DNA of 64,000 nt, taken from the NCBI GenBank assembly GCA_963664225.1, contig OY760937.1, forward strand, positions 3,616,001 through 3,680,000. Direction: 5' to 3'. Both the position numbers and the translations under genes were made by a program. Positions 42,410 to 61,590 of this stretch are shown one piece after another; positions within the stretch are counted from its first letter, which is position 1; every line of letters begins with the position of its first letter. The notes beneath the pieces were generated by a model, which worked only from the letters and a program-made list of their open reading frames with translations, was not told the origin of the DNA and did not search any database. This DNA is from Verrucomicrobiia bacterium (GTDB taxonomy: Bacteria > Verrucomicrobiota > Verrucomicrobiia > Limisphaerales > UBA1319).

Positions 42410-43800
42410 GGTATGTTCTAAGGTGATGGGTAACAGTTTCTCCCAAGCACATGGGTTACACTTTGCGAATGTCATGGAAGGAAACCAGTGTGAAGGACGA
42501 ACGAACAATAATGATCAGCGAGTATCTCAGCGGAGACTATTCGATAGCCGAGGTGGCGCGGCGTAGCGGGGTCGCTCGCAAGACCGTTTACAAATGGATT
42601 CGCCGTTATGAGGAAGGGGAGGATCAGGGACTCCAGGATCAGTCCCGGGCTGCGCACCATCATTCCAACGCTATTTCCGAGCAGATGGAGGAGTTGATTT
42701 TGGAATGGAAAGCCAGGCACCCTTTGTGGGGAGCCCCCAAGATTCAGAGCAAGCTCACCGGGTTGGCGGACTGTCCGGCTGAGAGCACGGTGAGCAATGT
42801 GCTGCGTCGGCACGGGTTAACGCGCCAGGTGCGTCGCAGGATCCGTTCCCATGGCAACGCGCAGCCGATGGCCGGCCTGCTTGGACCCAATGAGCTATGG
42901 TGTGTGGATTTTAAAGGATGGTTTCGCATGGGCAATGGAGAGCGCTGCGATCCGCTGACGATTAGCGACGCCTACAGCCGTTACCTGCTAGGCTGTCAGG
43001 GGATTGTTGGGGCGACCGGGCATTTGACAGTGAAACCTCTCTTTGAAGGCATTTTCCGCGAGTATGGGTTGCCCCTGGCGATTCGCAGCGACAATGGACC
43101 GCCGTTTGCCTCACCGGGGTTGGGCCGCCTGAGCCTGTTGTCGGTTTGGTGGATGCGGTTGGGAATCAGATTGGAACGCATTGATCCTGGGCATCCTGAA
43201 CAAAATGGCCGGCACGAGCGGATGCATCGCACTTTGAAAGAAGCGGCGATAACGCCTCCGAAGGCGAACAAAGCGGCTCAACAAAAGGCATTTAACGCGT
43301 TTCGGCAGGAATTCAATCAAGAGAGGCCGCACGAGGCGTTGAACCAACACACGCCGGCCAGCGTGTTTACGCCATCCGTGAGGAACTATCCCGATCGGTT
43401 GATGCAGCCGGAGTATCCTGAGAGATGGGAAAAACGAGGGGTGCGCACCAACGGAGAGATCAAGTGGCAAGGAGGCATGATCTATGTCAGCCAGGCGTTA
43501 ATTGGCCAGTGGGTCGGGCTGGAGCCGACCGGGGATGGATTATGGAAAGTGCATTTTATGAGTCAGGAACTGGGCCATGTGGACGAGAAGCGAAGGCGCG
43601 TGCACCTCTGGAACAAGAAAAAACGTGAGCCAAACAAGAATCAAATGTTCCCCGTCCCCTCGGTTCCACTGCGCCTTTGTCGCTACGCTCCAAAGGCTCC
43701 GTTCCACCGAGGGGACGGGGGCGAGTTGGGTCAAATGAAACCTCAAAAAGTGTAACCTATGCGCTTGGAAGAAAGTGTTACCTATGTGCTTGAACATACA
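42410..43800 (+). mobile_element. IS481-family insertion sequence
   Basis: Imperfect ~55-bp TIRs with internal GGT(A/T)ACA repeats; right end GAACATACA, left end GGTATGTTC; no clean TSD. Confidence 0.8.
42469..43755 (+). CDS. IS481-family transposase
   Basis: HTH (RKTVYKWIRRY), WCVDFKG, SDNGPPF, QNGRHERMHRTLK, RPHEAL. Confidence 0.92.
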   Translation: MSWKETSVKDERTIMISEYLSGDYSIAEVARRSGVARKTVYKWIRRYEEGEDQGLQDQSRAAHHHSNAISEQMEELILEWKARHPLWGAPKIQSKLTGLADCPAESTVSNVLRRHGLTRQVRRRIRSHGNAQPMAGLLGPNELWCVDFKGWFRMGNGERCDPLTISDAYSRYLLGCQGIVGATGHLTVKPLFEGIFREYGLPLAIRSDNGPPFASPGLGRLSLLSVWWMRLGIRLERIDPGHPEQNGRHERMHRTLKEAAITPPKANKAAQQKAFNAFRQEFNQERPHEALNQHTPASVFTPSVRNYPDRLMQPEYPERWEKRGVRTNGEIKWQGGMIYVSQALIGQWVGLEPTGDGLWKVHFMSQELGHVDEKRRRVHLWNKKKREPNKNQMFPVPSVPLRLCRYAPKAPFHRGDGGELGQMKPQKV

Positions 43801-47959: not shown

Positions 47960-50377
47960 TCATTGCACCACGTACGAGGGCGGAAGTTCCGCCGGATCTG
48001 AGCCCCAGGACCGGTTCGGTTCAGCGCCCATTTCCAGTTCCAAAACCCCGCCCGCCACGATCTCCCTGTAATTCAGCCAGGCCCGATTCAGCGGTTTTCC
48101 ATTCAATTTCGCCTGCTGAATATAAATGTTCTTTTCGGAATTGTTATGCGCGATGACGGAGAATGTTTTGCCCGCCGAATATTTCGCATCCAGCCGGAGG
48201 GTCACCTTTTTAAACAGGGGACTGCCGATCACATAAATGCCGTCCACGGGCGATACGGGATGCAGGCCGATCGCGCTGAGAATATACCAGGCGGACATCT
48301 GCCCGACATCCTCGTTCCCGCACAGTCCCTTGATGCCGGGACCGTAGGCGTGGTCCATGATGAAGCGCGACCATTTCTGACTCAGCCACGGTTGGCCCGC
48401 ATACACAAAAAGGTAGGGCACATGGTGAACCGGTTCGTTGGCATGGTTGTAATAGTCGTTCCATTTGAAACTCGTCGGGGTTTTCTCGAAGAATTCCGTC
48501 AGGTGTTTCAGGAAATAATCCCGGCCCATCATCTCGATCATTCCGCGCACATCCTGCGGCACAAACCATCCCTGCTGGTAGGGATCGCTTTCCACGCAAC
48601 CCTGGCCCTGCGTCGTGGCGCCCTGCCATTGGGTCCAGGAACCATCGCTGTTTTTGGCCCGCATGTTTCCCACGGTGGGATCGTAAATATTCCGGTAATT
48701 CAGCGACCGCTTGAAGAGCCTCTGCGCGTCGTTGGTTTGCCCCAGCGCCTGTGCAAAACGACCGGCGCAATAATCGAAATAGGCATTTTCCAGCGTCACA
48801 GAAATACTGCCCGGCACGAAACCCAGCGCTTCGTATTCTTTGCGATTGTTGCGCCCGCTTTTGGTTTCATCCACCGAGCGCAGGCATAGTTGATAGGCCT
48901 TTTGCGCATCGTATCCGCGTATGCCGCTCAGATAGGCCGCCGCAAACACCGACACTGCGGGATCCCCAACCATGCAGCCGGATTCGGCCGCCACAATTTC
49001 CCAGCGGGCCAGATAACCGTTGCCGCTCAATTCCGCCTGTTGCATCAGCGAATTGACCGTGTCATTGACGACATCGGGCCGGATGATGGACAGCAGTGGA
49101 TACTGGCTGCGGAAAACATCCCAGCCGCTAAAGATCGTGCGATAGGTAAATCCGCTCGTTTTATGCACCTTGTGATCGGCGCCCGTATAGTCACCATCGA
49201 CATCCGAGAAGGCCCGGGGATCGATCATCGAATGATACAGCGCGGTGGCAAATGCTTCCCGCTGCGCGTCCGTTTCGCCTTCGATCGCCACATTGGCCAG
49301 TGCCGTATTCCACGATGCGAGCGCGCTCTTGTGAACCGCCTCGAAGTTCCAGCCGCTGATATCGTGCTTCAAATTGGCCCGTGCTCCTTCGACGCTGGCA
49401 AACGAAATGCCGCATTTGAGCAAAACCTGTTCGCCTTCTTTGGTTGCGAACTCGGTGAAAAACCCAAGGTGATCGCCTTCCATTTCCCGGCAGTTCTCCA
49501 GGACCTTGGCCGCCGCCACCACTTTCCGATAACGCGGGCTTTCGATATCCTCGCGCTTCCGTTTCCAGTCCGCCGGAATGTCCGCCGACCAGACGCCAAA
49601 TTTTGTCAGCGGCTTGCTGAACCGGGCGGAAAAATAGACCGTGTAGTCCGCCTTGCCATCGCCGTTGCCCCAGCCGCCCCCCGCCGGTGGGCACTTCATC
49701 CAACCTTCAATCGTGTCCGCACCCACCACTTTTACATACTGCCGGATGGAGGTTCCGCCCACACGATGCGCCAGATCGATCTGGATGCGCGATTGTTCGG
49801 ATTGTGGATACGTGAATCGGAGCATGCCCGCACGCGGCGCGGCCGCCATCTCCGCGCGAATCTTATAGTCGTCCAGTGTGACCGCATAATATCCCGCCCT
49901 GGCCACCTCGGTCCCGTGATTAAACCGTGATCGGAAGCCATCTTCAGCTCCCTTGTCACCGCGTTCCGTCTTGAGCTTGCCCGTGGTGGGCATGACCTGG
50001 AAATTTCCGAAATCCCCATACCAACCCACGCCGCTCATGTGGGTGAAACTGAACCCTTCAATGGATTTGTGTTCCCACGAATACCCCGGCCCGTTGTCGC
50101 CGCCGGTGATCGTATCCGGACTCAGTTGAACCAGGCCAAAAGGCGTGGCCGCCCCGGGAAACGTCTTTCCCTCCCCATACTCCGTGCTCGTGCTGGCGCC
50201 AATCATCGGGTTGATGCTGTCCGCAAGAGTCCGCGCGGCGTGTCCCGGGGAAGCCAATCCCAGCAGGGCAACAGAGGCCATCAGATACGAATTCAGAATG
50301 GCCCGGCGGACGGTCCCGGTGGAACCGTCCCGCCGGTTCTTCAAGGCCGAAGTGACAACCTTATTCATGGCGCGCAT
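47960..50377 (-). CDS. GH92 alpha-mannosidase (start uncertain)
   Basis: TFPGAATPFGLVQLSPDT, FTHMSGVG, WDVFRS, NEPVHH, GNEDVGQMSAWY. Confidence 0.92.
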   Translation of the reverse strand: MRAMNKVVTSALKNRRDGSTGTVRRAILNSYLMASVALLGLASPGHAARTLADSINPMIGASTSTEYGEGKTFPGAATPFGLVQLSPDTITGGDNGPGYSWEHKSIEGFSFTHMSGVGWYGDFGNFQVMPTTGKLKTERGDKGAEDGFRSRFNHGTEVARAGYYAVTLDDYKIRAEMAAAPRAGMLRFTYPQSEQSRIQIDLAHRVGGTSIRQYVKVVGADTIEGWMKCPPAGGGWGNGDGKADYTVYFSARFSKPLTKFGVWSADIPADWKRKREDIESPRYRKVVAAAKVLENCREMEGDHLGFFTEFATKEGEQVLLKCGISFASVEGARANLKHDISGWNFEAVHKSALASWNTALANVAIEGETDAQREAFATALYHSMIDPRAFSDVDGDYTGADHKVHKTSGFTYRTIFSGWDVFRSQYPLLSIIRPDVVNDTVNSLMQQAELSGNGYLARWEIVAAESGCMVGDPAVSVFAAAYLSGIRGYDAQKAYQLCLRSVDETKSGRNNRKEYEALGFVPGSISVTLENAYFDYCAGRFAQALGQTNDAQRLFKRSLNYRNIYDPTVGNMRAKNSDGSWTQWQGATTQGQGCVESDPYQQGWFVPQDVRGMIEMMGRDYFLKHLTEFFEKTPTSFKWNDYYNHANEPVHHVPYLFVYAGQPWLSQKWSRFIMDHAYGPGIKGLCGNEDVGQMSAWYILSAIGLHPVSPVDGIYVIGSPLFKKVTLRLDAKYSAGKTFSVIAHNNSEKNIYIQQAKLNGKPLNRAWLNYREIVAGGVLELEMGAEPNRSWGSDPAELPPSYVVQ

Positions 50378-50407: not shown

Positions 50408-52780
50408 TTACTTTTTCAGCTCGGCGTTCAGACGGAGGGTTTCTCCGGCTTTAAGTGTCAAGGCTGCCGTCTTCTCTCCATAACGCGCCTTGAAGGCTCC
50501 GCCGGTCACGCTATGAATTTCCGCCGTTTGAAGTTTCCCATCCTTCCACTGGAGATTGACTTCCAGGCCGCCACGGGCCCGCAAGCCCTTCACACTGCCC
50601 GTGGGCCACGCCGCAGGCAGGGCGGGCAGAAGTTCGATCAGGTCGTTCTGGCTTTGCAGCAGCATTTCGGCAATGCCGGCCGTGCCACCGAAATTGCCGT
50701 CGATCTGGAAGGGCGGATGCGCGTCGAACATGTCGGGATAGGTGCGCTCCGGACTGAGCAGATATTGGAGAATGCTGTAGGCGTGATTCCCATCATGCAG
50801 TCTGGCCCAGAGGGCAAACCGCCAGGCCGTGGCCCAGCCCGTGGCCTTGTCGCCGCGCAGTTCCAGGGATTTTTTCACCGCCGCCGCAAGCTCGGGCGTC
50901 GTGCGCAAATCGATTTGCCCGCTGGGATACAAACCGTAAAGGTGCGAAACATGACGGTGATGACTGTCCGTTCCCGGCTTGTCATCCCAATCCTTCAACC
51001 ATTCCTGAAGCTGACCCTCCCACCCGATCTGCATGGGAGCCAGTTTCTCGCGCGTGGCGGAAACCTTGTCGCGAAACTCCTTGTCCACGCCCAGTGTTTC
51101 CGAGGCTTTGATGCAATTGGCAAACAGATCGCGCAGGATCTGCAGGTCCATCGTCGGACCGGCGCAAACGCTGGTTTTGCCTTCAGGATGGCCGTTTTCC
51201 GGTGAAACGGATGGGCTGGTCACGAGCCAGTGGTGGGTCGGTTCTTCAACCAGTGTGTCGAGGAAAAACTCCGCGGCGCCCTTCATGGCGGGATAAATCC
51301 GCTTCAAATATTCCGTATCGCCAGTGAACAGGTAGTGATCCCAGAGGTTCTGGCAAAGCCACGCGCCCCCGGTGGGCCAGATGCCGGAGAACGGCCCATC
51401 GATCGGAGCCGAAGCCCGCCACAAATCCGTGTTGTGATGAACCACCCAACCGCGCGCGTTATACATTTCCCTGGCCGTGCGGGCGCCCGTCTGCGTCAAA
51501 TCCAGCACCATGGCCGTCAGCGGCTCGATGCATTCGCCCATGTTGGCCGTGTCCACCGGCCAGTAATTCATTTCGGTATTGATGTTGATCGTGTATTTGC
51601 TGCCCCACGGTGGATTCATCGAATCATTCCAAATGCCCTGCAAATTCGCCGGCTGGCTGCCGGGACGCGACGAGCAAATGAGCAGATAACGGCCAAACTG
51701 GAAATACAGCGCGGCCAGTTGCGGATCGCCGCCCTCGGCGAAATGCGCAATGCGCTCATTGGTCGGCAGCTTCATCGCATCGGTTTCACCCAGATTCAAC
51801 GTGACACGGCGAAAGAGCCGTTGATGTTCCTTGGTGTGCGCCGCGAGCAGGGCCTTGAACGGTTTCTTCAGTGCGGCCGCAATCTGTTTCTTTGTAATCG
51901 CCTCGGGATCGGCGCTGGTGTCTTGAAAGCTCTTGTAGCTCGTGGCCGCGGCAACAAACAACGTCGCGGAATTGGCCCCGCTGACGCTGAGTGTGTTATT
52001 GGTTCCCGCCACGATTTTTCCTCCCTGCGCCAGAATATGAACGCGGGACTGGAACTTCAGCGCGCCCTTGATGCCTCCAGCCGATCCATTGACGCCGCTC
52101 ATGACCAATTCATTGGATTCGGCGGAAACCGTCGCCTTCTGCGGCGTCTTCATGCTGGCGACAAAGGAAATCTGGCCGGGCTTGTTTGCCGTAAGCCGCA
52201 CCACAATCACCTGGTCCACTGGGCTGGAAAACACTTCGCGCAAATACTCCACGCCGCCCGCGGAATAACTCACCTGGCTCACAGCGGTGTCGAGATTCAA
52301 GTCGCGGTAATAATTTTCAGGGGATTGTGCTCCTGGAAATTCGAGGAACAAATTACCCACCGTCTGATAGGGCATCTGACCGATCGGTTTGGCCATCATA
52401 TTCCGGCCAATCAATTTGTCGGCGTCATCGTACTTTCCATCGAAAATCAACTTCCGGATTTCCGGCAACGCGGCCAGCGTATTGGTGTTGTTGGGATTAT
52501 AGGGACCGCCCGCCCAAAGCGTGTCCTCATTGAGCTGGAGTTGCTCGCGTTCCACCCCGCCAAAAACCATCGCGCCGAGCCGGCCATTGCCCAGTGGCAA
52601 CGCCTCCGTCCAAACCTTGGCCGGCTGGCGATACCACAGGCTCAGCGGCGTGCGCTGCTTGGCAAGCTCCCTTTTGGCGGGGGTTGATGAACTGGGATCG
52701 GAACTGCCCTGTGCAGCATATGCGCCGTTGACCAACAGCGTGAATCCGAAAACCAAAATCGCGACTTTACAGTATTTCAT
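50408..52780 (-). CDS. GH95 alpha-L-fucosidase-like glycosidase
   Basis: EALPLGNGRLGAM, FGRYLLI, NINTEMNYW, SPEN, HRHVSHL, FQIDGNFG. Confidence 0.93.
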   Translation of the reverse strand: MKYCKVAILVFGFTLLVNGAYAAQGSSDPSSSTPAKRELAKQRTPLSLWYRQPAKVWTEALPLGNGRLGAMVFGGVEREQLQLNEDTLWAGGPYNPNNTNTLAALPEIRKLIFDGKYDDADKLIGRNMMAKPIGQMPYQTVGNLFLEFPGAQSPENYYRDLNLDTAVSQVSYSAGGVEYLREVFSSPVDQVIVVRLTANKPGQISFVASMKTPQKATVSAESNELVMSGVNGSAGGIKGALKFQSRVHILAQGGKIVAGTNNTLSVSGANSATLFVAAATSYKSFQDTSADPEAITKKQIAAALKKPFKALLAAHTKEHQRLFRRVTLNLGETDAMKLPTNERIAHFAEGGDPQLAALYFQFGRYLLICSSRPGSQPANLQGIWNDSMNPPWGSKYTININTEMNYWPVDTANMGECIEPLTAMVLDLTQTGARTAREMYNARGWVVHHNTDLWRASAPIDGPFSGIWPTGGAWLCQNLWDHYLFTGDTEYLKRIYPAMKGAAEFFLDTLVEEPTHHWLVTSPSVSPENGHPEGKTSVCAGPTMDLQILRDLFANCIKASETLGVDKEFRDKVSATREKLAPMQIGWEGQLQEWLKDWDDKPGTDSHHRHVSHLYGLYPSGQIDLRTTPELAAAVKKSLELRGDKATGWATAWRFALWARLHDGNHAYSILQYLLSPERTYPDMFDAHPPFQIDGNFGGTAGIAEMLLQSQNDLIELLPALPAAWPTGSVKGLRARGGLEVNLQWKDGKLQTAEIHSVTGGAFKARYGEKTAALTLKAGETLRLNAELKK

Positions 52781-53070
52781 AATTTTTTTGTAAACGATCC
52801 GGCGGCGTGCATATAACAAGTAATCTGGCCACCTCCAGAATCACAGCTCTTTTTTCGGGGATGCCGCTCCGGGGGTGCATGGCAAAATTCTTCAGCATGC
52901 CGAAAAAGGCTTTATAACGACATGGAAGTGCGTCCGATGCTTTGTCCTTGTAGTCCGGGTGCCCCCACCCGGCGTCCGGAGAACAGCCCCTCAACCGAAT
53001 AATCCAATCGCGCGATTCGTCACTCCCGCCCTGCGAGGCACGAGCGGGGAGGGAGTTGGAGGGAGGGGAT

Positions 53071-53706: not shown

Positions 53707-53724
53707 CATCCTCCAATCCCGTCC

Positions 53725-55872
53725 ATTCCCCCTTTCGTTTCCGCCACACGCAATGGCCCGTAGCGTGACGACGGTTGAAACACCCATGGCGGAGCGCCGA
53801 CTTTTAGTCGGCTTAACGCCTCCGATAAACCAGTTTGCGGGTATCGCTGCTCATCGGTTAAAACCCATCCCGTCCTGACTTTTTGTCTTATTCACTACTT
53901 CGCGCGAACCTTAAATTCCATTTTATTAGCGTCTATTACCGAGGATTAGCGGTTTCCTCCCTTCCGGCTCACCCCAGTCTCCCTCGGTATGGAGTCTCGG
54001 CTTCAGCCTGCGTGGACCGCTATGAAATCGAGCGGCTTGTAGCATTCGCAGCCTTCCAGCCGTAGCGCAGACATCCTGTCTGCTGTATCGCAGATTTCCA
54101 ATCTGCAATCGTTGATCCTCCTCAATCGTGCTTAAATGAACAGGTCTGTACCTCTGCTTCAGCCAGTCAGATCATCATATTATCCGCCGCATCAACTTGT
54201 AGGCCGTGTCCCCCGACCCGGCGTCCCTCGGTATGGAGTCCCGGCTTCAGCCGGTTCGGTCACCGTATCGCAGAGGCATTTGAACTCGCGCAACCCTTCG
54301 AAATTCAAAATCCCTCCTGCATTCCCCCTTTCGTTTTCGCCACACGCAATGGCCCGTAGCGTGACGACGGTTGAAACACCCATGGCGGAGCGCCGACTTT
54401 TAGCCGGCTTAACGCCTCCGATAAACCAGTTGGCGGGTATCGCTGCTCATCGGTTAAAACCCATCCCGTCCTGACTTTTTGTTTTATTCACTACTTCGCG
54501 CGAACCTTAAATTCCATTTTATTAGCGTCTATTACCGAGGATTAGCGGTTTCCTCCCTTCAGGCTCACCCTGGCGTCCCTCGGTATGGAGTCCCGGCTTC
54601 AGCCTGCGTGGACCGCTATGAAATCGAGCGGCTTGTAGCATTCGCAGCCTTCCAGCCGTAGCGCAGACATCCTGTCTGCCGTATCGCAGATTTCCAATCT
54701 GCAATCGTTGATCCTCCTCAATCGTGCTTAAATGATCAGGTCTGCACCCTGCTTCAGCCAGTCAGATCATCATATTATCCGCCGCATCAACTTGTAGGTC
54801 GTGTCCCCCGACCCGGCGTCCCTCGGTATGGAGTCCCGGCTTCAGCCGGTTCGGTAATCGTATCGCAGAGGCATTTGAACTCGCGCAACCCTTCGAAATT
54901 CAAAATCCCTCCTGCATTCCCCCATTCGTTTTCGCCACACGCAATGGCCCGTAGCGTGACGACGGTTGAAACACCCATGGCGGAGCGCCGACTTTTAGTC
55001 GGCTTAACGCCTCCGATAAACCAGTTGGCGGCTATCACTGCTCATCGGTTAAAACCCATCCCGTCCTGACTTTTTGTCTTATTCACTACTTCGCGCGAAC
55101 CTTAAATTCCATTTTATTAGCGTCTATTACCGAGGATTAGCGGTTTCCTCCCTTCAGGCTCACCCTGGCGTCCCTCGGTATGGAGTCCCGGCTTCAGCCG
55201 GTTCGGCCATCGTATCGCAGAGGCATTTGAACTCGCGCAACCCTTCGAAATTCAAAATCCCTCCTGCATTCCCCCTTTCGTTTCCTCCACACGCAATGGC
55301 CCGTAGCGTGACGACGGTTGAAACACCCATGGCGGAGCGCCGACTTTTAGCCGGCTTAACGCCTCCGATAAACCAGTTGGCGGGTATCGCTGCTCATCGG
55401 TTAAAAACCCATCCCGTCCTGACTTTTTGTCTTATTCACTACTTCGCGCGAACCTTAAATTCCATTTTATTAGCGTCAATTACCGAGGATTAGCGGTTTC
55501 CACCCTTCCGGCTCACCCTGGCGTCCCTCGGTATGGAGTCCCGGCTTCAGCCTGCGTGGACCGCTATGAAATCGAGCGGCTTGTAGCATTCGCAGCCTTC
55601 CAGCCGTAGCGCAGACATCCTGTCTGCCGTATCGCAGATTTCCAATCTGCAATCGTTGATCCTCCTCAATCGCGCTTAAATGATCAGGTCTGCACCCTGC
55701 TTCAGCCAGTCAGATCATCATATTATCCGCCGCATCAACTTGTAGGCCGGGTCCCCCGATCCGGCGTCCCTCGGTATGGAGTCCCGGCTTCAGCCGGTTC
55801 GGTCACCGTATCGCAGAGGCATTTGAACCCGCGCAACCCTTCGAAACTCAAAATCCCTCCTACATTCCCCCT
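53725..55872 (+). repeat. Tandem array of ~596-bp non-coding units (module order ABC-ABC-AC-ABC)
   Basis: Unit starts at 53725, 54321, 54916 and 55268, with a final junction at 55864; units nearly identical. Confidence 0.95.
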
Positions 55873-56151
55873 TGCCGCCCATCCTCCGGGCTATGCGGAA
55901 CGCACTGCAATCATTCAGCCCACGTTGCCGTGGAAATGCTACCCCGGGTCGCGCGTTACAGTTTTTTGCGGTCAGCTGCAGTCAATCGGAATTTAACCGG
56001 TTGACCGATATCGTGCCTGGATGTCGCCCATACAAACGCCCTGTCCCGATTCGTTTGACAAATCCGATCGATGACGCGTATTTCTTAAATACGCCGGACG
56101 GCCCACGGCAACGCTGGCCATAACGGTAATTTATTCCATAAAGGTGACGCT

Positions 56152-56802
56152 ATGAATCGAAAAAATCTCCTCTTTCTTTTGTTCGGGCTGGCAAGTCTCC
56201 TGGCCTCAATCCAGGCTTCCGCACAGGGAACCTTGACGCCACCTGGAGCCCCTGCGCCCACCATGCGATCGCTCGATCAGATTTATAACGAAGTCACCAA
56301 ACTTACACCGGCCAGCCCGCTGCTCCTGACGTCGCCTCTGAGTCCCACCCAGCAAGGCGTCATCCATATGGCCGCCAGGGGCCAAAAGCAGGGTGACATC
56401 AAAGGCGAATGCACCATTACAGGATTGGAAAACACCACCGTATGCATTGGCTTCACGCATGAAGTGGTCAGTCCACGGGATGCAACGACGGGCCTGCCCA
56501 CCGGCAAGCGCCAGCATAAACCACTGACCATCACCAAGTATATCGACAAAACCACACCCTTGTTCTACAGCGCGCTGGTGAACAACGAGATTCTGACCGC
56601 GGTTTCCTTCAACTTCTTCCAGACCGACTCGAAAAACCAAACCACCAATTATTACCGGATCAAACTCACCAACGCCAGCCTGGTCGATATTCGCAGCAGC
56701 GATCCCAGCCAGGAAACCTTCCAATTCACTTACCAAAAGATCGAATGGAATTACGTGCCTTCAGGAATATTCGCCACGGATGATTGGTCGGTTTCGCCCT
56801 GA
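56152..56802 (+). CDS. hcp: Hcp/TssD-family tube protein with N-terminal Sec signal peptide and Pro-rich extension
   Basis: GQKQGDIKG, HEVVSPRDATTGLPTGKRQHKPLTITK.IDK.TPLFY.AL..NE.L, YY.IKL.NA, F.YQKIEW, DDW; signal MNRKNLLFLLFGLASLLASIQASA. Confidence 0.88.
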   Translation: MNRKNLLFLLFGLASLLASIQASAQGTLTPPGAPAPTMRSLDQIYNEVTKLTPASPLLLTSPLSPTQQGVIHMAARGQKQGDIKGECTITGLENTTVCIGFTHEVVSPRDATTGLPTGKRQHKPLTITKYIDKTTPLFYSALVNNEILTAVSFNFFQTDSKNQTTNYYRIKLTNASLVDIRSSDPSQETFQFTYQKIEWNYVPSGIFATDDWSVSP

Positions 56803-56829: not shown

Positions 56830-57720
56830 ATGAAACGATCTATCGTTTGGCTGTTGGTTTCAATCTGCCTGACTTTCTCCACACGGGCCGCCACCACGGT
56901 CAGTCAGACCAACCACTTTGCCTATGCCTCCAACCTGGGCTGGGTGGACTGGCGCGGAGACATCAGCAATGGGGCCACCATTGGCGACTACCTTTGCTCC
57001 GGTTACCTCTATGCGGCCAACGTGGGTTGGATCAACCTGGGAAGGGGGATGCCGCGAAACGGGATCCGCTACGGCAATCTCGCCGCGGCTGATTTCGGGG
57101 TGAATCACGACGGGGCGGGCAACCTCCAGGGCTATGCCTGGGGCGCGAACATCGGCTGGCTGACTTTTACCAACCGCGACGCCACCGGGAAGATTTACGA
57201 CGGGCCGCGCGTCAATCTCATCACCGGCCAGCTCAGTGGCTGGGTATGGGGCGCCAACGTGGGCTGGATCAGCCTTGGCAACGCCGTCGCGTTCGTCCAG
57301 GTGAATCGCCTGCAATCCGGAACCGACGCGGATCGCGATGGCATTTCCGACGCCTGGGAATTGGATCACTTCGGCAACCTGACCACCGCAAATGCCACGA
57401 GCGATCAGGACGGTGACGGCCTTGGCGATCTACAGGAGTATCTCGCTGGCACTGATCCGAAACAGGCTGCCAGCAACTTGAAGGGCGCGCTCGCACCATC
57501 TCCGGCCGGTCCCGTCCTTGTTTTTACCTGGTTGAGTCAGCCGGGCTGCCAATATCGAATTCTGCAAACCGACAGCCTGACGCCTCCAGTTTCCTGGTCG
57601 GACATGGGATTGGGCTGGATAAATCCCGATCCCGGAGGACCCGCCATCCATCAGATCGACATGAACGGAGCGGCCAGCGCTTTTTATCGCCTCGAAGCCA
57701 TCAAACCGCTTGGACCATGA
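56830..57720 (+). CDS. Secreted protein with four (G)xxxxxN(I/V/L)GW repeats, TSP3-like Ca-binding motifs and a C-terminal sorting-type domain
   Basis: AYASNLGW, YLYAANVGW, YAWGANIGW, WVWGANVGW; DADRDGISD, DQDGDGLGD, GTDP; ends AFYRLEAIKPLGP. Confidence 0.8.
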   Translation: MKRSIVWLLVSICLTFSTRAATTVSQTNHFAYASNLGWVDWRGDISNGATIGDYLCSGYLYAANVGWINLGRGMPRNGIRYGNLAAADFGVNHDGAGNLQGYAWGANIGWLTFTNRDATGKIYDGPRVNLITGQLSGWVWGANVGWISLGNAVAFVQVNRLQSGTDADRDGISDAWELDHFGNLTTANATSDQDGDGLGDLQEYLAGTDPKQAASNLKGALAPSPAGPVLVFTWLSQPGCQYRILQTDSLTPPVSWSDMGLGWINPDPGGPAIHQIDMNGAASAFYRLEAIKPLGP

Positions 57721-57912: not shown

Positions 57913-60900
57913 TTACTCCTTTTTTGCTTCCACCACTTGCAACTCCGCCACTGTGGCAAACTTGCGCCCATGCTGTTCGCTTAACACCACGAATTTCAGG
58001 TAGCGGGCCATGACGGGCTGAGGAAGCTGGATCAATTCTTCGGCGGCATCCCGATCAATCCGCCCTTTGGCTGCAGGGCCACCCCACGACTGTCCATCGT
58101 TGCTCAGATAGATTTCGTAATCCTTCACAAGGCCATTGTCATTGTCGTCTCCCCGCGCCACATACCTGACTGCGGCAATGTTCAGCGGTTGGGCATAGTC
58201 GATCGTCAGGAAATGCGGAGGATTTGCAGGCTCGCCGCTCCAGTGGCTGTGCCAGAATGTGTCCGTGTCGCCATCCACCGCGTGTTCCGCATCCCCTTCG
58301 CCTGCTTCAAAACTGCTGGCGGATACTACCTTGCCCTTGGGACTGGACGACGCGGCGGCCGGTTTTTCCATCTGCGGTTTGGCACGATTCTGCGGCGCCG
58401 TTAATCGTCCAACTGAGGAAAACTCCTTCTGCCCGGCAGGCAGCAAACGCAATATGTAGGAAAATTCCGCCGCCTCTGATCGTAGCATGTACGGCTCCAA
58501 CGGACGTGGTCCGCACCCATTCGAGCCAACGCCCAGTGTGCGACTGGCAAGGGTCACCACTGTGCTGACGCTGGGAGGCAGATCAACGGTATATTCGATG
58601 GGCGTCATCACTTCGTCGGTATAAGGCAAAGCCGAGACTTGAAGGAAGCCTCCTTCGGCTTGCGCCATCAAGGCGGGAAGTCCTTTTCCATACAACGCCG
58701 CCCAGCGGACATCCTCGTGGTTGCCGCACTCCATCGGCTTTTCGTAAGGGGTCATCTGCTGACGCACCGTGCTGTCATAAAAGCCCACATCGGATCCGCG
58801 TTTGCGATCGGAATAATTCTCCATCGGCCCGCGACCTAAATAGGCGAAGCGGTCATACTGCTTATCGAGTTGCAACCGCACACCCAACCGGGCCAGAGGA
58901 ATCCTCTTTCCCTGCGGCATGACTGCGTTGTCTACCGCAATCGATCCATCGCCATTGATCGTGAAAACAACTGAATGACTTACGCTGAAACGATTCTTAC
59001 CCGTTCCCTCCATGACGGATTCAATCCGCACCACAGCAGGAGCCGTTTGTGTGGCTCCCATGCGGACGAGGCTCCACTTCAAATCATCCAGGCCGTATTG
59101 GTGCCAGTCCTTGTAGGCCCACATGTCGTCCTTCTGGTGCGGCGCCCGCCAGAGATGCAACCGTGGCCCGCCGTTGGTAATTAGCAGGCTCTTGCCATCG
59201 CACACCAACTGTGAAATTGTTCCGGTGGCCTTGTCAAAAACGACCTGGAAACCTTTTCCTGACACTGTGATTTGCTGTTCGTTCTGCTCCAACTGAACCG
59301 CCGCCATTTGGGCCGCATCGGCAACAACAGGGGCGGCATTGACCGGCAGTTTGAATTGCGCCGCGGCCACCTCATAACCTTTCCGGGCCCACCGCTCCGT
59401 TTTGGCCAGCGTGAAGGACAGGTTCAGGAAATATTCCGCGCCTGGTTTTGGCTGAATGCGCTTGAATGGAATGGTGACCAACTTGTCCGTGCCGGGAGCG
59501 AGGTCCAGCTCCTCCATGGCTCCCTTGTCCATCACTTTGCCATCTTCGGTGAGAGTCCAATGTCCCTTGAAGCCTTCAAGTGTGATGAAGGCGTATTTGT
59601 TACAAATCTTAACCTGCCCGGTGGAAAGATCACCCGCCTCCATGCCGATCCATTGATATACGCGCTTCATTTCCGGGTAATGAGGCTTGGGCGAACGATC
59701 TGAAAAGATCACACCCTTGTGGATGAAATAATGGTCGTTGGGCACTTCACCGAAACCACCCCCATAGGCGATATACGGGCGTTTGGGATCGCGCCGGTTG
59801 TAAACGCCCTGATCCTCCCATTCCCAAATGGCGGCTCCCATGATGCTGGGATACTTGTCAAAGATGTCGTTGTAATCGCCGATGGACCCCATGGAGTTGA
59901 ACATCGCATGGGCGTATTCGCACATGTAATAAGGCTTGGTGTAATTGGTGCTGGTGGCGATCTTCTCAACCTCAGTGGGATTGGTGTACATCTGACTGTC
60001 CACATCGGCAGGGTTCCTCTTTCCAATCCCGAACGCCTCGTAATGCGCCGGACGGCTCTGGTCTATGGCTTTGATTGCTTTCAACGCGGAAACGAAGTTG
60101 CTGCCGCCTCCGCATTCATTGCCCAGCGACCACATGATCACGGAAGCGTGGTTCTTGAAATTCTCCACATTGGCCACATTGCGGTCCACAATCATCTTTT
60201 CGCAGGTGGGCTCGCGATCCAGAAAACCTCCGTAACCGTGACATTCCACGTTCGCTTCTGCGTTCAGGTAAATGCCCCATTCGTCACACAGCTCATACCA
60301 GCGCGGATCATCGGAATAGTGGCAGGTGCGAACGTGATTGCAATTGCCCTGCTTGAGAATTTCCAGATCGCGGATCATCCGCTCCTCGGTGATGTAATGG
60401 CCGGTGTCCGGCCAGTTTTCATGACGGTTGGCGCCCTTGAGCTTCACCGGCACGCCGTTGATGGTAAACACACGGCCCTTGATTTCGACCTTTCGAAAAC
60501 CGGTTCTGGCCGAAAGAATTTCACCTTTCTTTTCCCCCGATAGCGTCAGCACCGTCGTGTAAAGATTCGGGGTCTCCGCCGTCCATTTGGTTGGATTGTT
60601 GACCGGAAGCTCCAACTCTACCGTTGTTTCCTCGCCGGGCTTCAATCCGGGAACGCTCACTTTCGTTTGCGCCACCGACTGCCCCTTCAAGGTAAAAACT
60701 CCGACTTCCAATTCTCGCGCATTCGCAAGCTCGCCCGAGTAATTACGCACCTTGGCTGTCACTTTGAGCGTCGCATCTTTGTATTGGGTGTCCAAGTCGG
60801 TCTTGATGAAATAATCGCGAATATGCACCTCCGGCGCACTCCAGAGAGTTACGTTGCGGAAAATGCCGCTCAACCGCCACATGTCCTGATCCTCCAGATA

Positions 60901-61590
60901 ACTGCCCGCGCTGTAACGGTAAACCTCCGCCGCAACAAGATTCCTGCCCGGCTTTAAAAACCGGGTGATATCAAACTCCGCCGCGTTGCGGCTGTTCATG
61001 CTAAATCCCACCTTTTCCCCGTTGATCCACAGGAAGAATGCCGAGTCCACACCGTCAAAACAGATGAAGGTGCGTCGGCCTTTCCAATCGGAGGGCACTT
61101 CAAACTCCCGGCGGTAACTCCCCACCGGGTTGCGCTCGGTGTAAGCGGTGTAATTCTTGGGTGGTTCGCTCATGACCCGCGGCCAATCCCGTTGGAACGT
61201 GTAGCCAATGTTGCGGTAATACGGCGTTCCGTAACCGAGCAGTTGCCAGCAGGAGGGCACCGGAATCTCCTTCCAGGCACTCACATCAAATTCCGGTTTG
61301 TAGAAGTCCACGGGGCGTTGGGTCGGATGCGCCACCCAGTTGAATTTCCACTGGCCATTCAGGCTCCGATAAAACGAGGATTCCTGCCGTTTGGCCGCCA
61401 GCGCTTCCTTCAAATTGGCGTAAGGCATCAACGTCGCGTGGGCTGGCTCCTTGTTTACACCAAGGCATTGAGGATTCTCAATTTCAGGAGGCAGCGGGGC
61501 ATCCGCTCTCGATATCAGTGGCAGACAACAAAGAATGCTCAAAAATAAAGCAGCAAACAACCGATCCGCACTTGTTTTTCTCATAGTCAT
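57913..61590 (-). CDS. GH2 beta-galactosidase (LacZ-like) with C-terminal F5/8 type C (discoidin) domain
   Basis: EDQDMWRLSGIFR, GANRHE, NHVRTCHY, WSLGNE, CEYAHAM; AVDGDTDTFWHS. Confidence 0.92.
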   Translation of the reverse strand: MTMRKTSADRLFAALFLSILCCLPLISRADAPLPPEIENPQCLGVNKEPAHATLMPYANLKEALAAKRQESSFYRSLNGQWKFNWVAHPTQRPVDFYKPEFDVSAWKEIPVPSCWQLLGYGTPYYRNIGYTFQRDWPRVMSEPPKNYTAYTERNPVGSYRREFEVPSDWKGRRTFICFDGVDSAFFLWINGEKVGFSMNSRNAAEFDITRFLKPGRNLVAAEVYRYSAGSYLEDQDMWRLSGIFRNVTLWSAPEVHIRDYFIKTDLDTQYKDATLKVTAKVRNYSGELANARELEVGVFTLKGQSVAQTKVSVPGLKPGEETTVELELPVNNPTKWTAETPNLYTTVLTLSGEKKGEILSARTGFRKVEIKGRVFTINGVPVKLKGANRHENWPDTGHYITEERMIRDLEILKQGNCNHVRTCHYSDDPRWYELCDEWGIYLNAEANVECHGYGGFLDREPTCEKMIVDRNVANVENFKNHASVIMWSLGNECGGGSNFVSALKAIKAIDQSRPAHYEAFGIGKRNPADVDSQMYTNPTEVEKIATSTNYTKPYYMCEYAHAMFNSMGSIGDYNDIFDKYPSIMGAAIWEWEDQGVYNRRDPKRPYIAYGGGFGEVPNDHYFIHKGVIFSDRSPKPHYPEMKRVYQWIGMEAGDLSTGQVKICNKYAFITLEGFKGHWTLTEDGKVMDKGAMEELDLAPGTDKLVTIPFKRIQPKPGAEYFLNLSFTLAKTERWARKGYEVAAAQFKLPVNAAPVVADAAQMAAVQLEQNEQQITVSGKGFQVVFDKATGTISQLVCDGKSLLITNGGPRLHLWRAPHQKDDMWAYKDWHQYGLDDLKWSLVRMGATQTAPAVVRIESVMEGTGKNRFSVSHSVVFTINGDGSIAVDNAVMPQGKRIPLARLGVRLQLDKQYDRFAYLGRGPMENYSDRKRGSDVGFYDSTVRQQMTPYEKPMECGNHEDVRWAALYGKGLPALMAQAEGGFLQVSALPYTDEVMTPIEYTVDLPPSVSTVVTLASRTLGVGSNGCGPRPLEPYMLRSEAAEFSYILRLLPAGQKEFSSVGRLTAPQNRAKPQMEKPAAASSSPKGKVVSASSFEAGEGDAEHAVDGDTDTFWHSHWSGEPANPPHFLTIDYAQPLNIAAVRYVARGDDNDNGLVKDYEIYLSNDGQSWGGPAAKGRIDRDAAEELIQLPQPVMARYLKFVVLSEQHGRKFATVAELQVVEAKKE

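Follow-up and report, generated by a model that had tools for sequence, protein, structure and literature searches.

The window analysed here is a stretch of 64,000 nucleotides from a Verrucomicrobiia bacterium of the Limisphaerales (assembly GCA_963664225.1, contig OY760937.1, positions 3,616,001 to 3,680,000 of the forward strand). It contains a gene for an Hcp-like protein that is followed, on the same strand, by a gene for a second putative secreted protein, called here the GW protein after its repeated 'GW' turns; the coordinates of both genes, of their parts and of the surrounding features are collected in Table 1. The gene pair sits between glycoside hydrolase genes, a beta-lactamase-fold protein is also encoded in the neighbourhood, and a transposase gene lies further upstream. 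In the stretch directly upstream of the Hcp gene, about four ~596-bp units are repeated in tandem, and the open reading frames (ORFs) within this array look spurious. A second array, 97–99% identical to the one in the window, lies 1.7 Mb away, and pieces of 43–48 nt of the ~596-bp unit occur at a few further places in the genome.

Table 1. Features at and around the Hcp gene; positions are those of the window (position 1 is its first letter) unless preceded by a contig or locus label.
Feature	Position	Strand	Description
IS481-type transposase	42451-43755		rve_3, HTH_32; ~12 kb upstream of the cassette
GH92	47960-50377		glycoside hydrolase
GH95	50408-52819		glycoside hydrolase
Tandem array	53724-55996		units of ~596 bp
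Shine-Dalgarno-like site	56140..56147	+	AAAGGTGA; 4 nt before the Hcp ATG; read from the sequence
Hcp gene	56152-56802	+	ORF of 216 codons, ATG start
Sec-type signal peptide (predicted)	56152..56223	+	codons 1-24; read by rule
Pro-rich leader	56224..56286	+	codons 25-45; G.L.PP.APAPTM[RK][ST]LD[QE]I[YE]
Linker	56287..56361	+	codons 46-70; specific to the leader-Hcp family (alignment)
Hcp/TssD domain	56362..56790	+	codons 71-213; Pfam, NCBIfam, AlphaFold2, Foldseek
GW partner gene	56830..57720	+	296 aa; starts 27 nt after the Hcp stop
GW protein parts			signal peptide; GW repeat domain aa ~21-160; TSP3-like repeats aa ~165-215; FN3-like module aa 218-296
C-terminal module of the GW protein	57481-57717		TSP3-like repeat and FN3-like sandwich
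GH2	57913-61590		glycoside hydrolase
Second tandem array	C1:1,960,385-1,964,560		
Two adjacent Hcp paralogs	C1:2678960-2680397 (L001 1399-1956, 1985-2836)		185 and 283 aa

The product of the first gene contains a true Hcp/TssD domain, and chance is excluded as the source of the match. The Pfam family T6SS_HCP (PF05638) was detected at residues 81–201 with an E-value of 2.2e-30 and 106 bits (cut-off 23.5), and the NCBIfam model TIGR03344 (TssD) at residues 71–213 with 5.5e-34 and 117.5 bits (cut-off 58.9). In an AlphaFold2 model based on an alignment with 26 relatives, residues 71–213 have a pLDDT above 90, and the top Foldseek matches of this model in the PDB are all Hcp proteins, with 4hkh_A at an E-value of 3.4e-15 and a TM-score of 0.90 on the target. 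Among solved structures the highest sequence identity, 35%, is to Hcp3 of P. aeruginosa (3he1), and canonical 162-aa Hcps from metagenomes are 47–50% identical to the window domain. A loop of about 10–11 residues before the last two strands, present in solved T6SS Hcps, is absent from the window protein; the deletion is apparent in comparison with, among others, Hcp3 (3he1) and V. cholerae Hcp (5mxn), and with the canonical rows of our homolog alignment. In a search of PHROGs neither the Hcp nor the GW protein was matched.

Hcp of the T6SS assembles in the cytoplasm and carries no signal peptide. In the window protein, the Hcp domain is preceded by a predicted Sec-type signal peptide, a proline-rich leader and a linker. 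Signal peptides were judged throughout by rule, by eye and with a hydrophobicity window rather than with a trained predictor such as SignalP, and this reading gives an n-region MNRKN, a hydrophobic core of ~15 residues, and A22-S23-A24 before Q25. All full-length relatives have a hydrophobic N-terminus, the signal-peptide sequence itself drifting, and residues G26, P30 and L41 of the leader are invariant in their alignment. When the gene was compared with L117, a metagenomic relative whose protein is 86% identical, codons 1–24 showed four synonymous and four non-synonymous differences, and codons 25–37 six synonymous and no non-synonymous ones. A Shine-Dalgarno-like site precedes the first ATG, and none is found in the sequence before the codon of the internal Met38. 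The persistence of the N-terminus in relatives down to 38% identity, the substitutions in codons 25–37 and the Shine-Dalgarno-like site at the first ATG only argue together that this segment is real, that is, translated and under purifying selection. In the AlphaFold2 model the leader region has low confidence (pLDDT 46–65), as does the linker (pLDDT 55–65), and a helix is predicted at residues 41–49. The initial annotation had recognised a full Hcp domain behind a signal peptide ending in ASA-QG; the first element is confirmed by Pfam (including the T6SS_HCP profile that it proposed to run), TIGR03344, the predicted fold and Foldseek, and the second agrees with the rule-based reading and with conservation.

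The best 120 of 1,354 homologs were read for their N-terminal type. About 40 of them are of the leader type, with a signal peptide and the leader, down to 38% identity to the window protein; this count includes five that the regular expression missed and five whose gene calls begin at or near the internal methionine (P0008, P0015, P0019, P0020 and P0034). A further 29 start with a signal-peptide-like segment without the leader, and the remaining 51 have no N-terminal extension. In three of the 29 (P0060, P0095 and P0115), the Hcp domain follows a collagen-like G-x-y stretch that is itself preceded by a signal or anchor segment, a third architecture of putatively exported Hcp.

A maximum-likelihood tree was calculated from 118 of these 120 Hcp domains, two rows having been dropped because the core-motif regular expression missed them. 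In this tree, 39 of the 40 leader rows fall within one group of 48 (support 85/93), together with seven signal-peptide-only and two canonical rows. A separate clade of 12 signal-peptide-only Hcps lies among canonical ones with a support of 100/98, and the well-supported branches require at least four changes of the signal-peptide label. The groups of the tree and these forced changes indicate that the leader and signal-peptide forms are clades rather than stray gene calls, and the changes suggest that export signals on Hcp arose several times and were kept.

The host genome is a single contig of 5,783,426 bases, 96.35% complete by marker genes. Profile searches of its six-frame translations, in which a very divergent system could escape, returned no match for TssC, TssB, TssF, TssK, VgrG, PAAR, the phage sheath or gp25 (PF05591, PF05943, PF05947, PF05936, PF05954, PF05488 and PF04965 for the T6SS families), and an E. 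coli control was positive for each of the eight core families. As neither the tail sheath (PF04984) nor the gp25-like baseplate wedge (PF04965) has a match anywhere in the genome, these searches gave no sign of a contractile injection system or phage tail. The initial annotation had found no tssBC, vgrG, PAAR or baseplate genes in the window; this is correct and extends to the whole genome, in which the canonical T6SS that it had named as the counter-case was not found. Two adjacent paralogs of Hcp do occur, ~1 Mb from the window gene. In both, a predicted signal peptide stands directly before the canonical Hcp start, and the second has a C-terminal extension of ~100 aa. Their locus lacks the leader motif and has no GW gene in its vicinity.

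We then asked how the Hcp types are distributed among 401 genomes sampled from the phylum of the host. At E≤1e-10, 17 of these genomes were matched by the family profile, and 19 were matched by TssC; the N-termini of 16 matched frames were read. Hcp ORFs without an N-terminal extension were found in eight genomes, all of which are TssC-positive, with the gene mostly within ~1 kb of tssC. Signal-peptide-like starts were found in seven genomes including the host, six of them TssC-negative; the seventh (G081) is TssC-positive and has both kinds of Hcp. In two further genomes (G339 and G062), both TssC-positive, the matches contain stop codons and their N-termini were left unread, and in G104 only the leader is matched, as part of a larger protein. 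No TssC was detected in three metagenome-assembled genomes (MAGs) that have a leader-Hcp, genomes whose completeness is not known.

The leader is shared by thousands of secreted proteins other than Hcp. A DNA pattern for the motif core, applied to a collection with one genome per species, retrieved 115 stretches, most of them from MAGs of Verrucomicrobiota, Phycisphaerae/Planctomycetota, Kiritimatiellia and Nitrospirota and a few of them chance matches in unrelated genera. The motif is nearly always located 25–60 residues from the N-terminus and preceded by a hydrophobic stretch. Among 44 complete leader ORFs compared with Pfam, 18 have a Beta_helix domain (two of these below the cut-off), seven Lcl_C and two T6SS_HCP, and 17 have no family. 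At E≤1e-3, a profile of the leader alone (36 positions) matched 2,626 representative clusters out of 1.84 billion. Its 148 new top matches, less 17 shorter than 100 aa, leave 131 proteins, which comprise 35 with Lcl_C, 14 with Beta_helix/NosD, four with T6SS_HCP, three with FGE-sulfatase, seven with other domains and 68 with none. The initial annotation had stated that passenger domains other than Hcp also follow this leader in secreted proteins, and had advised collecting such proteins and listing their domains; the collection bears the statement out, with several head families besides Hcp. Neither Pfam, NCBIfam nor PHROGs holds a model for the leader or for the GW domain. A role of the leader as a genome-wide sorting signal in the host was considered and ruled out, since the motif occurs there once.

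Some proteins from other, CPR-like-looking lineages contain two to four tandem copies of the leader motif, followed by Lcl_C, LamG, FN3 or glycine-rich domains (P0121–P0124, P0127, P0131, P0144, P0154, P0168, P0193 and P0201), and one of them (P0123) has a GW turn in the same chain. On account of these repeats, the motif may be a structural repeat and not only a docking peptide.

The gene immediately downstream of the window Hcp went unmentioned in the initial annotation; it is a conserved partner, and its presence changes the likely mechanism. We searched all ORFs of the retrieved loci using a GW profile HMM and counted the 59 loci whose leader ORF is credible; 12 loci that did not pass crude criteria for the leader, although five of these contain a GW gene, and five overlapping duplicates were set aside. 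A GW gene was detected within about ±5 kb in 37 of the 59 loci and was not found within the examined flank in the other 22. In the 37 linked loci it is always on the same strand as the leader gene (37/37), downstream of it in 32, and separated by a gap of ≤200 nt in 28. The linkage holds across phyla and regardless of the head domain. As a control, among 80 metagenomic Hcp loci only L117, which has a leader-Hcp, has a GW gene.

The same association is seen at the level of whole genomes. Within the phylum sample, the GW gene occurs in 33 genomes and the leader in 24; 22 of the 24 leader-positive genomes are GW-positive, compared with 11 of the 377 leader-negative ones. In 20 of these 22 genomes a leader and a GW gene share contig and strand and are no more than 2.3 kb apart, with both gene orders represented. 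The host genome has one leader protein and one GW protein, and they are adjacent. For the leader-Hcp type in particular, an adjacent GW gene is found in the window, L117, G402 and G403, and none in the loci L043, L120/L121, L122 and L123; in G401 the single GW gene has a different leader protein as its neighbour, the leader-Hcp being encoded on another contig. Judged by this linkage, the Hcp gene is one half of a two-gene cassette composed of a leader-headed secreted protein and a GW gene.

The GW protein is the only full-length member of its family in the host genome. Its GW domain consists of four to five 'GW' turns (A.GANIGW..W) and is predicted to form an 8-stranded beta-barrel, and its TSP3-like repeats are of the calcium-binding type. 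The AlphaFold2 model reached a pLDDT of 83.9 and a pTM of 0.78, and Foldseek found no match to it in the PDB at E≤1e-3. Using VIA-align, the barrel (residues 20–160) was matched with the OprF N-domain at Z 9.2 (rmsd 2.7 over 99 residues), PagL at 8.8, NspA at 8.2 and OmpW at 7.8, with Cap15 and hemophilin lower; Z-scores of 7–8 are common for unrelated models with this method, so the barrel matches (Z 8–9.2) are middling. The C-terminal residues 218–296 were matched with FN3-like sandwiches at Z 6–7.5. The best ESM Atlas match, with a score of 0.75, is a hypothetical cluster, and the family as a whole comprises 2,960 clusters, all named 'hypothetical', among which identities of 60–70% are common. 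Along the strands of the family, one face is aliphatic and the opposite face bears invariant Trp together with Asn, Asp, Arg and Gln. Several known families were tried for the partner and rejected: the Amuc_1099 family of pilus-like system proteins (NF042425) reached 17.2 bits against a cut-off of 50, on the TSP3-like repeat at residues 168–214 only, and ChW, MtsD and CglD were likewise below their cut-offs, the sub-threshold matches falling on the TSP3-like repeat or on a single GW turn.

The C-terminal part of the GW profile has a wider distribution. It matches 41 other ORFs of the host genome, and in 33 of them the match ends within six residues of the C-terminus. The module combines a TSP3-like repeat with the FN3-like sandwich and ends in ..FYR[VL].A..P; extra matches to it were seen in two MAGs (17 in G401 and 26 in G403). 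Among ten of these ORFs that were scanned for domains are PD40 and NHL propellers, a matrixin, two subtilases, a lamin-tail protein and a GSDH, while two match no family. Its presence on large secreted proteins such as proteases, propellers and lamin-tail proteins suggests a generic tail of secreted proteins, and the module looks like an undescribed sorting or anchoring tail. It was found in none of 113 leader ORFs, many of which are cut by the ends of their loci.

Taken together, we favour, with moderate confidence, the reading that the window encodes a Sec-exported Hcp used outside any T6SS, whose leader is recognised by the GW partner. The Hcp-fold protein would be made with a Sec signal peptide and exported across the inner membrane, and predicted cleavage after A24 would leave a mature N-terminus that begins with the Pro-rich leader of ~20 residues. 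The leader would act as a common handle behind which a variable head is fused (beta-helix, Lcl_C lectin-like, Hcp or others). The GW protein would recognise this handle and hold or escort the head, either within the cell envelope or at the surface, which is where we infer that Hcp resides. Exposed aromatic cradles are the usual binders of proline-rich peptides, as in SH3, WW and EVH1 domains, and for this reason the likely contact would be between the Trp-rich face of the small GW barrel and the TPPGAPAP stretch. The Hcp head would have been captured from a T6SS hcp gene into the cassette and probably still forms rings. Recruitment of Hcp for an exported, non-T6SS use had been proposed from the window sequence and is supported here, with a signal that is conserved in homologs and a genome in which a canonical T6SS was not detected.

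A broader reading, which we offer tentatively as possible, takes the leader and the GW protein as a widespread, undescribed docking or secretion system of the cell envelope, in which the Pro-rich N-terminal peptide would insert into the Trp-rich face of the small barrel and the partner would display interchangeable heads. Such a system would comprise thousands of protein clusters from Verrucomicrobiota, Planctomycetota/Phycisphaerae, Kiritimatiellia, Nitrospirota, Desulfobacterota-type and CPR-like lineages. Its Hcp version would be a phage-tube-derived ring outside the cytoplasm and the first T6SS-free, Sec-dependent use of Hcp, one that has arisen more than once.

Hcp might instead be exported and act independently of its neighbour, for example as a ring, in the periplasm or secreted, in which small proteins are carried or shielded, much as Hcp acts as a chaperone inside the T6SS; the GW protein would then be only co-regulated or engaged in another step such as maturation. 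Leaderless Hcps with a signal peptide do exist, namely the two host paralogs, the ~29 among the best 120 homologs and the clade of 12, which implies that export of Hcp does not need the leader–GW pair, and several leader-Hcp loci have no adjacent GW gene. We nevertheless find this explanation fairly unlikely, given that the co-occurrence of leader and GW gene across genomes is far above background (22/24 against 11/377) and that the two are same-strand neighbours in every linked locus whatever the head, the host itself having a single copy of each, side by side.

A different role for the partner follows if the GW protein is an outer-membrane 8-stranded barrel of OmpA-like layout and the leader, instead of docking at the surface, is a signal for outer-membrane targeting or secretion, comparable to the segment that targets curli subunits to CsgG. 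The outer-membrane barrels that match residues 20–160 best (the OprF N-domain, PagL, NspA and OmpW) point this way, as does the partner being far more conserved than its clients, which is what a machine part would show. However, the Z-scores are in the range that unrelated models reach, the invariant Trp residues belong to the polar face, and the aliphatic face might just as well form the core of a soluble protein. Moreover, an 8-stranded barrel has no channel through which Hcp, folded or unfolded, could pass, and the C-terminal module, being present also on secreted proteases and propellers, is more in keeping with a secreted than with an integral protein. On balance we consider this assignment doubtful and quite unlikely. 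Finally, an ordinary cytoplasmic Hcp, started at Met38 or used by a T6SS or contractile injection system elsewhere, is extremely improbable: the five database gene calls with internal starts and the 47–50% identity of the domain to canonical Hcps are outweighed by the protein-level conservation of codons 25–37, the single Shine-Dalgarno-like site at the first ATG, the absence of matches to eight core families in a single-contig genome, and the tendency of signal-peptide Hcps to track TssC-negative genomes.

The favoured reading, of an exported Hcp recognised through its leader by the GW protein, has consequences for annotation. The presence of Hcp, without a signal peptide, in the culture supernatant is a textbook hallmark of an active T6SS, and to our knowledge genome annotation calls every PF05638 match a T6SS tube protein or effector. 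Coherent clades of Hcps with a Sec signal in genomes that show no T6SS would mean that this annotation is wrong for those genes, and that the tail-tube fold has taken on a further role in the cell envelope. The leader–GW cassette, whose parts are two small proteins and one peptide, would in addition offer a concrete and testable way to learn how phyla that are abundant but little studied display variable heads, binding or enzymatic, at the cell surface. A literature search found no Hcp with a Sec signal peptide among the listings and abstract openings that it covered, which does not amount to proof, and a search for papers containing the motif strings returned none.

A short conserved terminal module that serves many heads and meets one partner recalls, by analogy, cohesin–dockerin pairs, the N-terminal anchors of phage receptor-binding proteins, and the curli–CsgG system, in which an N-terminal targeting segment directs the subunits to CsgG. 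No sequence or fold relation between these docking systems and the leader–GW pair was found, and the binding that we propose for the pair is drawn from gene linkage only. Another parallel is offered by the evolved or extended Hcps, which carry C-terminal toxin domains and are counted among T6SS-delivered toxins (PMC3482391); in the part of that article used here, Hcp is treated only as a component of the T6SS. These proteins and the window protein both use Hcp as a module fused to something else. However, extended Hcps have a cytoplasmic N-terminus, depend on the T6SS and are extended at the C-terminus, whereas the window Hcp has its addition at the N-terminus, in a genome where no T6SS was found. 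With respect to the T6SS Hcp/TssD proteins themselves (PF05638, TIGR03344; 3he1, 5mxn and the EAEC Hcp1 4hkh), the domain and the predicted fold are the same. The window protein differs from them in a 45-residue N-terminal extension with a conserved Sec-type signal peptide (by rule), in the missing loop of ~10–11 residues, in a genome that shows no sheath, baseplate, spike or PAAR genes, and in its position beside a secreted GW partner instead of T6SS genes.
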